The position numbers were made by a program, and so were the translations under genes. The notes beneath the pieces are model-generated. The model was not told where the DNA came from and made no database searches. It saw nothing but the letters and a program-made list of their open reading frames with translations. DNA of 64,000 nucleotides from Lachnospiraceae bacterium (GTDB lineage: Bacteria; Bacillota; Clostridia; Lachnospirales; Lachnospiraceae): positions 1,161 through 65,160 of the forward strand of contig JALFVM010000050.1 of NCBI GenBank assembly GCA_022787145.1. Direction: 5' to 3'. Numbering within the stretch: position 1 is the stretch's first letter; each line of letters begins with the position of its first letter. Below are positions 10,782 to 22,095 of this stretch, piece by piece.

Positions 10782-11339
10782 TTATTTGTGTTTTGCCAGA
10801 TACTCGGCTCTTCCCTCCTCATAGAGATTGTTGCCCTCACTGTCAATGATGACAACAAGCGGCATATCTTCCACATAAAGTTTTCTCAGTGCCTCCGCAC
10901 CCAGATCTTCATAAGCGATCAGCTCTGCCTTCTTGATGCATTTTGCAAGAAGCGCGCCCGCTCCTCCGATTGCACCAAAATAAACACCACTGTACTGCTT
11001 CATTGCTTCCACCACTTCCGGAAGACGCGCGCCTTTTCCGATCATGCCTCTCGCACCTACGGACATCATCGTCGGTGCATAAGCGTCCATACGTCCACTT
11101 GTTGTCGGTCCGGCAGAACCGATGACCTGTCCAGGTTTGGCCGGTGTCGGTCCTACATAATAAATGGTTGCGTCAGTCGGGTCAAAGGGAAGTTCTTTCC
11201 CTTCTGCCAGTGCCTCGCACATTCTCTTGTGTCCGGCATCACGTGATGTATAAATCGTGCCGGTCAGCAGGACTCTGTCTCCTGCATGAAGTGTTTTTGC
11301 CAGTTCCTCGGTAAGAGGGAGTGTAATTTTCTTTTCCAT
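10782..11339 (-). CDS. Fe-S hydro-lyase beta subunit (class I fumarate hydratase / tartrate dehydratase type)
   Basis: 185-aa beta-type subunit immediately downstream (1-nt gap) of the alpha subunit. GPTTSGRMD motif. Confidence 0.85.
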   Translation of the reverse strand: MEKKITLPLTEELAKTLHAGDRVLLTGTIYTSRDAGHKRMCEALAEGKELPFDPTDATIYYVGPTPAKPGQVIGSAGPTTSGRMDAYAPTMMSVGARGMIGKGARLPEVVEAMKQYSGVYFGAIGGAGALLAKCIKKAELIAYEDLGAEALRKLYVEDMPLVVIIDSEGNNLYEEGRAEYLAKHK

Positions 11340-11340
11340 C

Positions 11341-12183
11341 TTAAAGCACCTCCGTTTTGTGGCGAGTCACATGACAGTTGATGTTGATGGCACATGGCAT
11401 ACCTGCAATGTGCGTTGGTAATGTCTCAATATTCAGTCCGATGGCAGTTGTCTTTCCTCCAAAGCCCTGCGGTCCAATGCCAAGCTGGTTGATTTTCTCC
11501 AGCATCTCTTTTTCCAGATCTGCATAGAACGGATCTTCATTGGAAGAATCCAGCGGACGCATCAATGCCTTTTTAGCAAGAAGGGCTGCCTTGTCAAACG
11601 TTCCTCCGATTCCGACTCCGACGACCATCGGCGGACATGGATTCGGTCCTGCTGTCTCAACCGTTTCCAGAATAAAGTCTTTGATTCCCTGCAGACCTGC
11701 GGAAGGCTTAAACATACGGATCGCACTCATATTTTCGCTTCCGAATCCTTTTGGTCCGACCGTAATCTTTACCTGTTCGCCCGGAACAATTTCTGTATAA
11801 ATCATAGCTGGTGTGTTGTCTCCCGTGTTTCCTCGTCGCACCGGATCCTTTACCACAGATTTGCGCAGATATCCTTTGTCATATCCGCGGCGCACGCCTT
11901 CATTGACTGCCTCAGTCAGATCTCCGCCAACCAGATGTACATCCTGACCGATTTCCAGAAAGACACAGGCCATTCCGGTATCCTGACAGATCGGTACATT
12001 CTCCTCATCTGCAATCGTAAAATTTTCAATAATATTGTCCAGTACTCCTTTTGCTATTTCTCCATCCTCACAGGCACGGCAATTTTTGATCGCACATTTT
12101 ACATCTTCGGGAAGATGTTCATTCGCCTCGATACAGAGCTTTTCAATCACATCTGTAAGCTGGCTCACTTCTATTTCACGCAT
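11341..12183 (-). CDS. Fe-S hydro-lyase alpha subunit (class I fumarate hydratase / tartrate dehydratase type)
   Basis: 280 aa with conserved Cys ligand context (PICQDTGM, CPPMVVGVGIGG), as in two-subunit FumA/TtdA proteins. Confidence 0.85.
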   Translation of the reverse strand: MREIEVSQLTDVIEKLCIEANEHLPEDVKCAIKNCRACEDGEIAKGVLDNIIENFTIADEENVPICQDTGMACVFLEIGQDVHLVGGDLTEAVNEGVRRGYDKGYLRKSVVKDPVRRGNTGDNTPAMIYTEIVPGEQVKITVGPKGFGSENMSAIRMFKPSAGLQGIKDFILETVETAGPNPCPPMVVGVGIGGTFDKAALLAKKALMRPLDSSNEDPFYADLEKEMLEKINQLGIGPQGFGGKTTAIGLNIETLPTHIAGMPCAININCHVTRHKTEVL

Positions 12184-12266
12184 CCAAAATCCTCTCCTTT
12201 CTTCGTTCCATGAAAGTATATAAACTCACGAGGCTATTCTACCATAAAACAAAAAAATATACTATG

Positions 12267-13877
12267 TTATCTTTCGTGACGGGCATATTTCGGAAGCAAC
12301 AATGGAGAAACATTTCCTGTCTCTACGTTTGCCTCCTTAAGCTCTTCTGCATAGGTGTTGATGTGATTGAGGTTTGGCTCCCCAAGTTCAACGGATTTGC
12401 ATTTTGCAGCAGCCTTTTTCCCTGCATTTCTGCCAAATACAATCACATCCAGAAGAGAGTTACCCATCAGTCTGTTTCTTCCATGAATTCCGCCTGCAGC
12501 TTCTCCTGCAACTAAAAGATTCGGAATTGTTTTTGTAAATCCATCCCCATCAATCTCAAGACCACCATTCTGATAGTGAAGTGTTGGGTAAATCAAGATT
12601 GGCACCTTTCTCATATCAATGCCATAGTTCATGTACATACGGAACATAGCTGGAATTCTCTTTTCGATGGTTCCCTCTCCACCAAGAATTTCAATCATCG
12701 GCGTATCAAGCCATACTCCTTGCTGACCACCTGGGACCTCTACACCGCGTCCTTCCTGGCACTCCCGGATAACGCCGGAAGCATTTACATCACGAGTTTC
12801 CAGTGGATGAATGTAAGCTTCTCCGTTTTTATTTACAAGCTGTGCACCAACAGAACGTACTTTTTCTGTTACTAACGCTCCCATAATCTGTGGTGGATAT
12901 ACGGCTCCTGTTGGATGATACTGGATAGAATCCTGATAAAGAAGTGGAGCACCCGCTCTGTATCCCAACACAAGTCCATCTGCGGTTGCACCATAATGGT
13001 TGGATGTTGGGAATCCCTGGTAATGCATTCGTCCTGCACCACCTGTTGCGATTACTACGGTCTTTGCTTTTGCAACCGAATAGTCTCCTGTCTCCATGTT
13101 CAAAAGAACAGCACCGGCAACCTGTCCTTTTTCATCTTTCAGAAGTTCAACGGCAGAAGTAAATTCAACTACCGGGATACCAAGATTCAAAACTTCATCT
13201 CTCAGTGTACGCATAATTTCTGCTCCGGAATAATCTTTTGCCGCATGCATTCTTTTTCTTGAAGTACCACCGCCATGTGTGGTTACCATTCTTCCGTCTT
13301 CTTCTTTATCAAATTCCACGCCAAGTTCATTGAGCCATTTGATTGCATCCGGAGCTTCCATGACAAGTCTTTTTACAAGCTCTGGCTTTGCAGCAAAGTG
13401 TCCGCCGCCAAAGCAGTCCAGATAATGCGGTACCGGTGAATCATTTTCTTTATCTGCTGCCTGGATTCCTCCTTCCGCCATCATTGTATTGGCATCACCA
13501 ATACGAAGTTTTGTAACGATCATGACATTTGCGCCTGCATTGTGGGCTTCAATGGCACACGAAGAACCAGCTCCGCCGCCGCCAATGACAAGTACATCAA
13601 CATCATAATCTATTTTTGTAAGATCTATCGTTTCACTCATCAGACGACTTGTCGAATGGAGCATTGCTGCCAACTCAAGTGGAGCTTTCTGTCCTTTATT
13701 TGGTCCAACTTTGATCTCTGCAAACGCATCTGGGTTATAATCCGGATGGAACTCTTTCAAGAGAGCATCTTTTTCATCCGCTGTCAGACGTCTAGGCTCT
13801 GTTGCCATACGTTCTGCTCTTGTAGCTTCTACCTTTTTGATAGATTCCATCATGTTTTCTGGATATGGTGCATACAT
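12267..13877 (-). CDS. Soluble SdhA/FrdA-family FAD flavoprotein (fumarate reductase-like) with about 100-aa N-terminal extension
   Basis: Motifs seen:
- Dinucleotide fold DVLVIGGGGAGSS.
- ATGGAGR.
- QYHPTG (HPT motif).
- TEKVR (catalytic Arg position of TEGCRGEGG).
- HYQNGG.
- GEAAGGIHGRNRLMGNSLLD.

Asn replaces the covalent-FAD His (DANTMMAEGG). Confidence 0.75.
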   Translation of the reverse strand: MYAPYPENMMESIKKVEATRAERMATEPRRLTADEKDALLKEFHPDYNPDAFAEIKVGPNKGQKAPLELAAMLHSTSRLMSETIDLTKIDYDVDVLVIGGGGAGSSCAIEAHNAGANVMIVTKLRIGDANTMMAEGGIQAADKENDSPVPHYLDCFGGGHFAAKPELVKRLVMEAPDAIKWLNELGVEFDKEEDGRMVTTHGGGTSRKRMHAAKDYSGAEIMRTLRDEVLNLGIPVVEFTSAVELLKDEKGQVAGAVLLNMETGDYSVAKAKTVVIATGGAGRMHYQGFPTSNHYGATADGLVLGYRAGAPLLYQDSIQYHPTGAVYPPQIMGALVTEKVRSVGAQLVNKNGEAYIHPLETRDVNASGVIRECQEGRGVEVPGGQQGVWLDTPMIEILGGEGTIEKRIPAMFRMYMNYGIDMRKVPILIYPTLHYQNGGLEIDGDGFTKTIPNLLVAGEAAGGIHGRNRLMGNSLLDVIVFGRNAGKKAAAKCKSVELGEPNLNHINTYAEELKEANVETGNVSPLLLPKYARHER

Positions 13878-21057: not shown

Positions 21058-21096
21058 CGTTCTTTTCCTTTCTTTGTACAAATCAAGTATAATTGT

Positions 21097-22044
21097 TTAT
21101 AATTCAATATGCGCAATGACTGCTTTCAGTGCATTGGCACTTGCCTGCAGTTTTTCAATCTCATGCTTATTCATCCGCATCGGCACCTTACCCTGAATAC
21201 CGTTCGGTCCCACCATCGTCAGTGTACTCAGACAAACATCTTCAATTCCATACTCTCCGTGCATCATGGAAGACACCGTTGCAATGGAATCAGAGGAAGC
21301 AAGCAAAATATTGCACAGCTTGCAAACTGCTGTTGCTACTGCATAGAAGGTTGCACCTTTGTTTGCAATCACCATACCGCCGGATTTGTGAACATATTCT
21401 TCCAGTCCTTCCTTATCCAGAGGCTCGATATCCAGTCCTTTCGATTTTGCCAGCTCATAATATTCATCTACGCTCACACCGGAAATATAAGCGCCTGTCC
21501 ACGGAACAAACGACGTATCTCCATGCTCACCAAACACATATGCATGAATATTTTTCTGTGCAATTTTATATTGCTCGGAAATTCCGCAGCGCAGACGGGC
21601 AGTATCCAGAATCGTTCCGGAACCGATGATCTGGCTCTCTGGCAGACCAGAAATTTTTGTAAATACATACGTCATAATATCAACCGGATTGCTGACAATA
21701 ACATAAAGTGCGTCTGGTGCTGCCTTTACGATTTCCGGAGTAATACTTTTTAAAATATTTACATTTGTCTGGGTCAACTCAATTCTTGTCTGCCCCGGCT
21801 TACGCGCAATACCAGATGTAATAATGACGATGTCAGAACCTTTTGCATCCTCATATTCCCCTGCCTGAATTGAAATCGGATCTCTGAAACAAGTTCCCTG
21901 AGAAATATCCATGACTTCACCAGCCACTTTTTTCTTGTTGATGTCAATCAGAACAATCTCTGATGCGATGTCCTCATGGGATAATGTATACGCAATCGTT
22001 GCTCCAACACTTCCAGCCCCAATGATCGTGATTTTGCTGCTCAT
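21097..22044 (-). CDS. L-lactate dehydrogenase-family 2-hydroxyacid dehydrogenase (Ldh/Mdh; Arg at the Gln102-equivalent position)
   Basis: 315 aa. ITIIGAGSVG Rossmann, GEHGDT catalytic His loop, SGTILDTARLR. The substrate loop reads GIARKPGQTR. Confidence 0.85.
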   Translation of the reverse strand: MSSKITIIGAGSVGATIAYTLSHEDIASEIVLIDINKKKVAGEVMDISQGTCFRDPISIQAGEYEDAKGSDIVIITSGIARKPGQTRIELTQTNVNILKSITPEIVKAAPDALYVIVSNPVDIMTYVFTKISGLPESQIIGSGTILDTARLRCGISEQYKIAQKNIHAYVFGEHGDTSFVPWTGAYISGVSVDEYYELAKSKGLDIEPLDKEGLEEYVHKSGGMVIANKGATFYAVATAVCKLCNILLASSDSIATVSSMMHGEYGIEDVCLSTLTMVGPNGIQGKVPMRMNKHEIEKLQASANALKAVIAHIEL

Positions 22045-22077
22045 AAAGTCTCCTTTCCATTTAAAAAAGCCAATTTT

Positions 22078-22095
22078 TTGTTATTTTTTTAACAA
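22078..22095. promoter_or_regulatory. Rex (redox-sensing repressor) operator candidate upstream of the ldh/mdh-hdr-flx-frd operon
   Basis: TTGTTATTTTTTTAACAA matches the clostridial Rex box TTGTTAA-N4-TTAACAA at 13 of 14 defined positions. Lies 34-51 nt upstream of the ATG at 22044. Confidence 0.6.

Follow-up and report, generated by a model that had tools for sequence, protein, structure and literature searches.

In a 64,000-nt stretch of the genome of a gut Lachnospiraceae bacterium (GenBank assembly GCA_022787145.1, contig JALFVM010000050.1, positions 1,161 to 65,160; hereafter, the window), we analyzed a cluster of 12 co-directional minus-strand genes at positions 10782-22044, which combines an Flx-Hdr electron transfer module with a soluble fumarate reductase-like pair, a two-subunit fumarase, and a dehydrogenase gene. 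An open reading frame (ORF) listing together with Pfam and NCBIfam profile searches recovered all 12 genes with the domains that a first-pass annotation of the bare sequence had given them. That annotation had drawn the unit at 10782-22095; its start holds, whereas its end, 22095, overshoots the mdh start codon by 51 nt on the upstream side. From mdh to fumB, the genes are:

21097-22044, minus strand: mdh, lactate dehydrogenase (LDH)-fold protein, 315 aa (Pfam Ldh_1_N and Ldh_1_C)
20257-21057, minus strand: hdrB, 266 aa from ATG, the longest ORF starting with TTG at 21081 (two Pfam CCG domains)
19871-20260, minus strand: hdrC, 129 aa, two CxxCxxCxxxC motifs (Pfam/NCBIfam)
17877-19874, minus strand: hdrA, full-length flavo-iron-sulfur subunit of the bifurcation type, 665 aa
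17443-17886, minus strand: mvhD/flxD, 147 aa from ATG (Pfam FlpD, E 4e-54), overlapping hdrA by 10 nt
16481-17455, minus strand: flxC-like Fe-S protein, 324 aa, two 4Fe-4S motifs
15443-16477, minus strand: flxB-like Fe-S protein of the AsrA/sulfhydrogenase-beta type, 344 aa (Pfam Fer4_22)
14592-15446, minus strand: flxA-like NAD(P)H:FAD oxidoreductase with 2Fe-2S site, 284 aa (Pfam FAD_binding_6, NAD_binding_1, and DHODB_Fe-S_bind)
13891-14568, minus strand: frdB-like 2Fe-2S/4Fe-4S subunit (frdB'), 225 aa
12267-13877, minus strand: frdA-like FAD_binding_2 flavoprotein (frdA'), 536 aa
11341-12183, minus strand: fumA, class I Fe-S fumarate hydratase alpha subunit (Pfam Fumerase, E 8e-120)
10782-11339, minus strand: fumB, class I fumarate hydratase beta subunit (Pfam Fumerase_C; NF005310, 295 bits, cut-off 238)

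The gaps between successive genes, recomputed from mdh to fumB, are 39, -4, -4, -10, -13, 3, -4, 23, 13, 83, and 1 nt; they agree with the figures given earlier and add a 4-nt overlap of hdrC and hdrA. Each of the 12 genes is preceded by a Shine-Dalgarno (SD) sequence, and a terminator scan gave no convincing intergenic terminator inside the cluster. We regard the cluster as a tightly packed operon, with co-transcription predicted. As had been noticed before, no FrdC/D or SdhC/D anchor gene occurs among the operon ORFs, according to both the ORF listing and Pfam. For comparison, a scan of species-representative genomes yielded at least 598 confirmed loci, of which the best 80 were analyzed.

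Malate dehydrogenase, fumarase, and the reductase pair

The first gene had been described as an LDH-fold dehydrogenase, and while the fold stands, its identity can be sharpened. In the motif SGIARKPGQTR, the protein carries Arg at specificity position 102 of the LDH/malate dehydrogenase (MDH) family. Lactate dehydrogenases have Gln at this position, and Arg denotes an oxaloacetate-reducing malate dehydrogenase. Because of this classical Q102R rule, we assign the first gene, from its sequence, to the LDH-like, NAD-dependent malate dehydrogenases. Arg102 is kept in 39 of 39 syntenic homologs, and the best match in the Protein Data Bank (PDB), 1y6j, has the same motif (GANRKPGETR). The protein passes the NCBIfam L-LDH model TIGR01771 (332 bits, cut-off 304) and fails all MDH models, and therefore automated annotation calls it an LDH; Lachnospiraceae genomes in general probably list this Arg102 gene as an LDH. 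For the fumarase, FumA scores 422 bits against the fumarate hydratase model NF004885 (cut-off 276) and fails the cut-off of the NCBIfam tartrate dehydratase model.

The flavoprotein, FrdA', comprises an N-terminal extension of ~90 aa that is Cys-free and mostly helical, the FAD and capping domains, and a short tail. Its earlier description as SdhA/FrdA-like applies to the fold and the catalytic residues; the C-terminal domain and the covalent-FAD His are missing, and the 90-residue extension had gone unnoticed. The fumarate-site motifs are present (the His of HPTG, Thr-Glu, the Arg of LETRDV, the His of PTLHYQNGG, and the Arg of HGRNRL), and residues H321, T337, E338, R341, R362, H434, and R469 are kept in all 80 loci, except for one H434N. 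Where FrdA and SdhA have their FAD-linking His, all 80 loci have an Asn (Asn130), and Pfam finds no Succ_DH_flav_C domain. Loss of the covalent-FAD His in FrdA His44 mutants abolishes succinate oxidation and spares fumarate reduction, so a non-covalently bound FAD would fit a one-way fumarate reductase. In a library of representatives, the combination of extension, Asn, and absent C-terminal domain reaches down to ~40% identity; at E<=1e-30, the whole family comprises 2227 representatives.

An AlphaFold model of FrdA' from a diverse alignment with distant representatives reached a pLDDT of 95.5 (a first model, based on 29 close homologs only, had a pLDDT of 60.8 and was discarded). Its best PDB neighbor is Escherichia coli FrdA (1kf6_A; E 1e-36, TM 0.71), next come Sdh1, flavocytochrome c3, and complex II, and NadB stands at rank 49. 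Among NCBIfam models, TfrA (340 bits) ranks above SdhA/FrdA (284-289 bits) and NadB (259-262 bits). Since every curated model scores below its cut-off, FrdA' represents a distinct subfamily: it reaches 284 of the 567 bits needed for TIGR01812 (SdhA/FrdA), 340 of 718 for NF004900 (TfrA), and, for the NadB models, 259 of 453 (TIGR00551) and 262 of 639 (NF005867). The pair is thus set apart from TfrAB and, with no anchor subunits, from classical FrdABCD and SdhABCD enzymes. Its gene context is fumarase and MDH, not NAD biosynthesis. At NCBI, the flavoprotein is named merely "FAD-dependent oxidoreductase," and, together with an MDH that passes the L-LDH model, automated annotation hides the pathway.

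FrdB' contains an SdhB-like 2Fe-2S motif (CRHGFCGAC...C), two four-Cys 4Fe-4S motifs, and a helical tail of ~60 aa; a CCG domain is absent by Pfam and by sequence. It gives weak full-domain matches to mitochondrial SdhB (E 1e-5), and in NCBIfam its N terminus matches only residues 19-87 of TfrB, with a score far below the TfrB cut-off.

The Flx-Hdr module

The seven adjacent, mostly overlapping genes between mdh and frdB' constitute a full FlxABCD-HdrABC set by Pfam and NCBIfam, with a two-CCG HdrB and an HdrA that has the FAD site and 4Fe-4S motifs. Both CCG motifs of HdrB are complete (CX31CCX34CXXC and a second copy), and the protein matches the HdrB chains 8rvv_B and 5odc_B end to end (E 4e-32 to 7e-30). 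Its top NCBIfam match is the HdrB-like SdhE of methylmenaquinol:fumarate reductase, at 143 bits against a cut-off of 500. HdrA aligns over residues 5-663 with residues 4-649 of 5odc_A, the HdrA of the solved Mvh-Hdr complex (E 1e-205), and has 32 Cys, including an N-terminal CHCGSN motif as well as inserted and C-terminal ferredoxin motifs. The flxB-like protein matches the NCBIfam models ShyB, HydB, and AsrA, all below their cut-offs. The NCBIfam model of TfrB is matched in separate, successive segments by FrdB', HdrC, and HdrB. With this gene content, the Flx-Hdr set would probably reduce ferredoxin with NADH, coupled to a high-potential acceptor.

Conservation and modular relatives

Synteny was counted in loci with at least 7.7 kb of upstream DNA (n = 55) and in those with enough downstream DNA for fumAB (n = 55). 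The order hdrB-hdrC-hdrA-mvhD-flxC-flxB-flxA-frdB' upstream of frdA' was found in 55 of 55 loci, fumAB follow the reductase pair in 51 of 55, and mdh stands in front of the operon in 36 of 50. With one gene order shared by all 55 loci, the arrangement is far beyond chance; the conservation in relatives for which the first-pass annotation had proposed a neighborhood survey is thus borne out for hdrBCA-mvhD-flxCBA-frdB'A'.

The best 80 loci come from gut and rumen Clostridia (Blautia schinkii, B. intestinihominis, Fusicatenibacter, Dorea, Mediterraneibacter, and Sporofaciens) and include metagenome-assembled genomes (MAGs) labeled Oscillospiraceae, Acutalibacteraceae, and Faecousia. The closest among the loci listed is a Lachnospiraceae MAG with 95% identity. 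The full cluster also occurs in genomes encoding proteins labeled Blautia luti (locus L082) and Blautia sp. MSK17_66 (L084), and single 90%-identity clusters contain thousands of metagenomic copies. Judged by these homologs, the operon is conserved in hundreds of gut Clostridia.

More distant relatives show the reductase pair with other partners. A Logan contig (SRR24270839; L086, 811-9771) encodes an FrdA' relative of 57% identity in the order ferredoxin, three-subunit 2-oxoacid:ferredoxin oxidoreductase, hdrA, mvhD, hdrC, hdrB, frdB', frdA', with no flx genes. In L087/L088 (9366-12891), a 48%-identical pair is translationally coupled to a NuoF-like protein (domains Complex1_51K, SLBB, and NADH_4Fe-4S), with no Hdr; this genome also carries cytochrome c and UbiA genes. 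The L087/L088 set is a putative three-subunit soluble NADH:fumarate reductase, a type of enzyme of which we know no description. The Fe-S protein and the flavoprotein are fused in P0219 (L089, 5250-7433; 727 aa, 53% identity) and in P0097 (675 aa, 92% identity), the latter possibly a gene-calling merge, and the existence of such single-chain fusions supports the notion that the two proteins form one enzyme. Finally, stand-alone pairs of 45-46% identity are found in L090 and L091. Two other distant representatives, P0252 and P0276, lie on contigs too short to give an informative context. Judging from gene neighborhoods, the reductase pair is a portable acceptor module whose link with Hdr predates that with Flx, which speaks for Hdr, not FlxA, as its immediate partner.

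Operon proteins are 80-90% identical between genomes labeled Lachnospiraceae and those labeled Oscillospiraceae, Acutalibacteraceae, or Faecousia, and the flanks differ (loci L016, L017, L028-L030, and L042 compared with the window; one match is labeled Sphaerochaetaceae). Such a pattern points to a recent horizontal transfer of the complete operon between gut anaerobes, or else to errors in MAG binning or labeling.

Rex-type operators upstream of the cluster

Rex is a repressor that senses the NADH/NAD+ ratio, which is why Rex-type operators would fit an NADH-consuming operon. We searched for the operator consensus TTGTTAANNNNTTAACAA with up to two mismatches, a criterion taken from PMC5367854. 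Two predicted sites of the clostridial type lie upstream of mdh, next to a candidate promoter:

22078-22095, no strand: proximal Rex-box-like palindrome TTGTTATTTTTTTAACAA, one mismatch, 34 nt upstream of the mdh ATG
22244-22261, no strand: distal Rex-box-like palindrome CTGTTAAATTTTTATCAA, two mismatches to TTGTTAANNNNTTAACAA, overlapping a promoter-like site
22273-22301, minus strand: candidate operon promoter TTGTCA-17-TATTAT upstream of mdh, a consensus match only

The promoter-like site at the distal palindrome reads TTAACA-18-TAAAAT (22250-22221). Further upstream, a terminator-like hairpin (22405-22388) bounds the unit. The leader upstream of mdh is AT-rich, and since Rfam found zero RNA families anywhere in the window, this long 5' region has no riboswitch or leader explanation.

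The whole window contains three Rex-type matches against 0.37 expected; the third (49027-49044, two mismatches) lies inside the gltB coding region and is probably a chance match. Across 54 related loci, 35 Rex-type sites occur upstream of the operon, compared with 0.84 expected from dinucleotide shuffles; in 27 of these loci, at least one site lies no more than 450 nt from the operon's first gene. Per kb, this amounts to 1.44 sites upstream of the operon and 0.0105 in the remainder of these loci. A Fusicatenibacter locus (L009) has the perfect operator TTGTTAAAAAATTAACAA, and related sites lie upstream of mdh or hdrB among loci L003-L075. No rex gene is present in the window, and no paper linking Rex to an flx-hdr-frd operon was found in the literature searched. 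From the operators, expression of the operon is probably under the NADH-sensing repressor Rex.

The 83-nt frdA'-fumA spacer (12184-12266) had been thought to hold a possible extended -10 element. The sequence TGGTAGAAT is indeed there, yet an internal promoter is not conserved, a loose pattern occurring in four of 44 spacers. We rejected an internal promoter before fumA: TGGTAGAAT is specific to the window, and the spacers often hold just an SD sequence. Spacer length ranges from 2 to 204 nt across the 44 loci. The junction is a hot spot of variation, with GC-rich hairpins in several loci and a transporter insertion point.

Relation to described systems

The first-pass annotation was aware of no biochemical description of such a complex. 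The idea itself is not undescribed: operon type and hypothesis were published for Pseudoclostridium thermosuccinogenes (PMC7282089), and a related tfrAB-flx-hdr link was put forward for tubeworm symbionts (PMC6315080). The P. thermosuccinogenes "succinate operon" (PMC7282089, 2020) combines seven Flx-Hdr genes with a fumarate hydratase, a two-gene fumarate reductase, and possibly a succinate transporter; by RNA-seq, it is co-regulated and ~4-fold up under CO2 limitation. Coupling of fumarate to ferredoxin reduction was proposed for it in a 2019 preprint by Koendjbiharie and van Kranenburg, as cited there (ref. 15). Likened through its published gene list, not through sequence, this operon shares both composition and hypothesis with the window, where fumarate hydratase, seven Flx-Hdr genes, and two reductase genes are likewise found together. 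It differs in having the hydratase first and under a single locus tag (CDQ83_RS03365), as opposed to a split fumAB at the end; the window operon also includes an mdh, and its organism is a mesophilic gut Lachnospiraceae. The bifurcation mechanism was hence already suggested in 2019-2020, and the window operon joins a known, biochemically uncharacterized kind. What the present analysis adds is the connection with Rex, the range of partner modules with which the reductase pair occurs, and mutually exclusive exporter candidates. The phrase "bifurcating fumarate reductase" occurs in no paper of the searched literature.

Desulfovibrio vulgaris FlxABCD-HdrABC has the same seven-protein set and domain architecture as the window. 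Its proposed acceptor is the DsrC disulfide, in ethanol metabolism (Ramos et al. 2015, as cited in PMC7282089 and PMC6315080), whereas the presumed acceptor in the window is the adjoining fumarate reductase pair. In the solved MvhAGD-HdrABC and related complexes (PDB 5odc, 8rvu, and 7bkb), HdrA, HdrB, HdrC, and MvhD are full-length homologs of the window proteins. There, bifurcation at the HdrA FAD is structurally established; donors are H2 or formate and the acceptor is CoM-S-S-CoB, as opposed to an FlxABC donor module and presumably fumarate.

Several fumarate reductases provide further parallels. Methanogen TfrAB is soluble and anchorless like the window pair, and TfrA is the best-scoring model of the flavoprotein. 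The single TfrB chain corresponds to separate FrdB', HdrC-like, and HdrB-like parts in the window, where the CCG domains reside on a separate HdrB and the flavoprotein lacks the C-terminal domain and has the N-terminal extension. CoM-SH/CoB-SH is the donor of TfrAB; in the window it is presumably NADH, via HdrA. In the type E SdhABE enzymes (methylmenaquinol:fumarate reductases) of Wolinella and Campylobacter, a two-CCG SdhE works directly with an SdhAB-type pair (PMC2680327); here, then, a fumarate reductase already has a CCG protein as its electron partner, although the type E enzyme is quinol-linked and has no HdrA, HdrC, or Flx. E. coli FrdABCD supplies the best structural match of FrdA' and has the same catalytic residues; compared with it, the window lacks an FrdC/D anchor, covalent FAD, the C-terminal domain, a three-Cys motif of the 3Fe-4S type, and a quinone.

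An independent association of fumarate reductase and Flx-Hdr exists in the reductive tricarboxylic acid cycle clusters of tubeworm symbionts, in which tfrAB and korABCD are interspersed with flxABCD-hdrABC and a TfrAB-OGOR-Flx-Hdr complex was suggested (PMC6315080). The suggestion of a shared complex is alike, and L086, with its 2-oxoacid:ferredoxin oxidoreductase, Hdr, and reductase pair, resembles these clusters; the context differs, being autotrophic and gammaproteobacterial, with a reductase annotated as TfrAB. A 2024 preprint mentions an "unusual" HdrA-Sdh/Frd association in Ruminococcus champanellensis.

Physiological data come from B. luti (PMC12773636, 2026), which makes succinate and has 0.5-1 U/mg of methyl-viologen-dependent fumarate reductase and ~1 U/mg of NADH-dependent MDH, with frdAB highly transcribed. 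That study models the reductase as NADH-dependent and leaves Flx-Hdr unmentioned. Its frdAB primers align with frdB'-frdA' in both the window and relatives, pointing toward each other at a distance of 1.0 kb, so the B. luti physiology concerns this enzyme family. We rejected L082 and L084 as representing B. luti DSM 14534, as the published primers mismatch them by 2-5; similarly, a match of primer 3 in hdrC was discarded as chance similarity (9 of 29 positions mismatched, in-frame stop). In Supplementary Table S2 of PMC12773636, the B. luti genes hydM and hydC/B/A carry the tags GKZ57_RS08550-08565, 4-7 tags from frdB (RS08530). In every relative examined, these positions are occupied by mvhD and hdrA/C/B, and the hydrogenase primers of the study do not match the Flx-Hdr genes of relatives.

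A proposed bifurcating fumarate reductase and its alternatives

A reductive branch from oxaloacetate via malate and fumarate to succinate, encoded together with Flx-Hdr, had been postulated earlier and is well supported by Arg102, by FumA scoring above its cut-off, by the FrdA fold and catalytic residues, by synteny, by the AAE-family transporter genes described below, and by the physiology of B. luti. As to how the branch receives its electrons, our best reading, which we consider probable, is NADH-driven bifurcation to fumarate and ferredoxin. MDH would use NADH to reduce oxaloacetate to malate, the two-subunit Fe-S fumarase would convert malate to fumarate, and the soluble two-subunit reductase, with a non-covalent FAD, one 2Fe-2S cluster, and two 4Fe-4S clusters, would reduce fumarate to succinate. 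Electrons for this reductase would come from the seven-subunit Flx-Hdr machine, whose genes lie between mdh and frdB': FlxA would oxidize NADH, and FlxB, FlxC, and FlxD (MvhD) would relay the electrons to the FAD of HdrA, which would split each pair, sending one electron uphill to ferredoxin via the HdrA ferredoxin domains and the other downhill through HdrC, HdrB, the reductase Fe-S subunit, and its FAD to fumarate. The net reaction would be 2 NADH + fumarate + Fd(ox) -> 2 NAD+ + succinate + Fd(red); expression of the operon would probably be controlled by NADH-sensing Rex.

With textbook potentials (NADH -320 mV, fumarate +30 mV, and ferredoxin about -450 mV), this net reaction comes to about -42 kJ/mol, and a plain soluble NADH:fumarate reductase would waste ~67 kJ/mol. 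If the system bifurcates, part of these ~67 kJ/mol would be recovered as reduced ferredoxin, without quinones or cytochromes. The reduced ferredoxin could drive Rnf or hydrogen formation, which would amount to a quinone-free equivalent of fumarate respiration. We favor bifurcation, as the most economical reading, because HdrA is full length and of the bifurcation type, the HdrB motifs are intact, the operators are of the Rex type, and the link between reductase and Hdr persists at 57% identity without Flx. Going one step further, and here our doubt slightly outweighs our belief, FlxABCD-HdrABC-FrdA'B' might form one soluble nine-protein supercomplex in which the non-cubane clusters of HdrB pass electrons to the FrdB-like subunit, not to a disulfide; this would constitute a new class of flavin-based bifurcating NADH:fumarate/ferredoxin oxidoreductase. 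Fumarate reductases that pair directly with a CCG protein have precedents, given that segments of TfrB match FrdB', HdrC, and HdrB and that SdhE is the top HdrB model.

Several points weigh against this picture. Canonically, HdrB reduces a disulfide, as opposed to handing electrons to another protein, and a direct HdrB-to-FrdB' contact is an assumption. The searched literature holds no biochemical evidence for ferredoxin reduction or for an Flx-Hdr-Frd complex, and among the PDB matches to the flavoprotein, the Fe-S subunit, HdrA, and HdrB there is no entry of a bacterial Flx-Hdr or Hdr-fumarate reductase complex. To our knowledge, neither the D. vulgaris Flx-Hdr nor a system of the window type has been reconstituted, no such report having been found in the literature searched. 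A single transcript across the operon in the source organism is a prediction, a recognizable Rex box is present in only half of the related loci, and the enrichment statistics overstate independence, as the loci are phylogenetically related. Lastly, relatives of the reductase are coupled to a NuoF-like module (L087), fused (L089), or without a partner (L090 and L091); as these do without Hdr, the pair has no intrinsic need for it.

It is this last point that speaks for the strongest alternative, a non-bifurcating NADH:fumarate reductase in which Flx-Hdr would serve only as an elaborate electron wire from NADH, dissipating the free energy and leaving ferredoxin unreduced. The L087/L088 pair, coupled to a single NuoF-like protein and devoid of Hdr, indicates that a direct path from NADH to fumarate is workable in this reductase family, and the 2026 B. 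luti study models its enzyme as NADH-dependent (PMC12773636). We nonetheless consider a mere wire unlikely: seven extra genes, including an HdrA with all the cluster motifs of the archaeal bifurcating enzyme, are retained in 55 of 55 loci, which is hard to explain if a single NuoF-like subunit could suffice, and L086 keeps Hdr without Flx.

Two further scenarios uncouple Flx-Hdr from the reductase. In one, the two would be joined by a thiol/disulfide carrier, Flx-Hdr reducing an unknown disulfide and the reductase re-oxidizing the thiol. The CCG motifs of HdrB are indeed of the type found in disulfide-reducing sites, and TfrAB, whose TfrA is the top flavoprotein model, demonstrates that thiols can drive fumarate reduction. 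However, FrdB' lacks the CCG domain that is the thiol-oxidizing site of TfrB, the ORFs and Pfam matches of the operon include no gene for a DsrC-like or other carrier, and we know of no such carrier in Lachnospiraceae, which leaves this scenario improbable. In the other, to which we give marginally less weight still, the reductase would be ferredoxin-dependent or free-standing, and Flx-Hdr would serve another acceptor or confurcate, the genes being neighbors by shared regulation. The stand-alone and fused forms in L089, L090, and L091 must use a diffusible donor, and the B. luti activity has so far been measured with methyl viologen only (PMC12773636). Yet the linkage is strict, often translationally coupled, and persists at 57% identity; without fumarate, the operon would offer Hdr no high-potential acceptor; and fumarate reduction by ferredoxin alone would waste ~90 kJ/mol.

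The least probable alternative is that the flavoprotein acts on a substrate other than fumarate, as an L-aspartate-oxidase-like enzyme or another enoate reductase, for which one could cite that the NCBIfam fumarate reductase, succinate dehydrogenase, and TfrA models all stay below their cut-offs, that NadB (1knp) is a good structural match (E 4e-30), and that a family-specific His aligns near what we take to be NadB Glu121 and SdhA Phe119. Against it stand a fumarase after the pair in 51 of 55 loci and an MDH before the operon in 36 of 50, NadB scores that are also below cut-off and lower than those of TfrA and FrdA, full conservation of the dicarboxylate-binding and proton-donor residues, and the fumarate reductase activity and succinate formation of B. 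luti (PMC12773636).

Should the nine-protein supercomplex exist, it would, together with Rnf, provide a form of fumarate respiration for quinone-free Lachnospiraceae and Oscillospiraceae, and the ATP balance assumed for succinate-forming gut Blautia would change. If the enzyme bifurcates, bioenergetic models such as the plain NADH-dependent one of 2026 for B. luti would have to be revised. It would also be the first case of an HdrABC core serving an organic, non-thiol acceptor via a docked reductase.

Exporter candidates and genomic surroundings

Succinate is a major cross-feeding and signaling metabolite in the gut. A transporter gene of the AAE family (AspT/YidE/YbjL; Asp-Al_Ex, 264 bits) accompanies the operon in 46 of 80 loci, located either between frdA' and fumA or after fumB (for example, at 11696-12892 in L019). 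The AAE family includes a Corynebacterium succinate exporter (PMC9527358). In the window, no AAE gene is present; orf106 is found instead, as a 13th gene 32 nt past fumB, with its own SD sequence and no terminator in between:

10429-10749, minus strand: orf106, small membrane protein, 106 aa, three predicted membrane helices

The protein has 2499 homologs, all unnamed, and no Pfam, NCBIfam, or PDB match; a PQ-loop-like motif is a visual impression alone. Homologs of 102-106 aa are the last operon gene in a subset of Lachnospiraceae, and in L094-L096 (4001-4309), from other Lachnospiraceae, the gene overlaps fumB by 4 nt. A homolog with 38% identity follows the distant stand-alone reductase pair of L090 (6042-6362). 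Among 55 loci, AAE occurs alone in 37 and orf106 alone in five, 13 lack both genes, and the two never occur together; for this zero overlap, the hypergeometric P value is 0.0025, uncorrected for phylogeny. The gene pattern makes orf106 a candidate alternative succinate exporter; a role as membrane tether is another candidate function.

Neither fumB nor orf106 is followed by a terminator in a simple scan, and read-through past orf106 into the downstream ABC-transporter genes may occur; these genes have a promoter-like site of their own (10389-10361). The GC content of the cluster is not anomalous. The rest of the window is ordinary chromosome, with ilvC, an aconitase-family hydratase gene, a branched-chain amino-acid ABC transporter, and glycogen synthase, and further neighbors are topoisomerase, asd, argH, gltBD, and argS.

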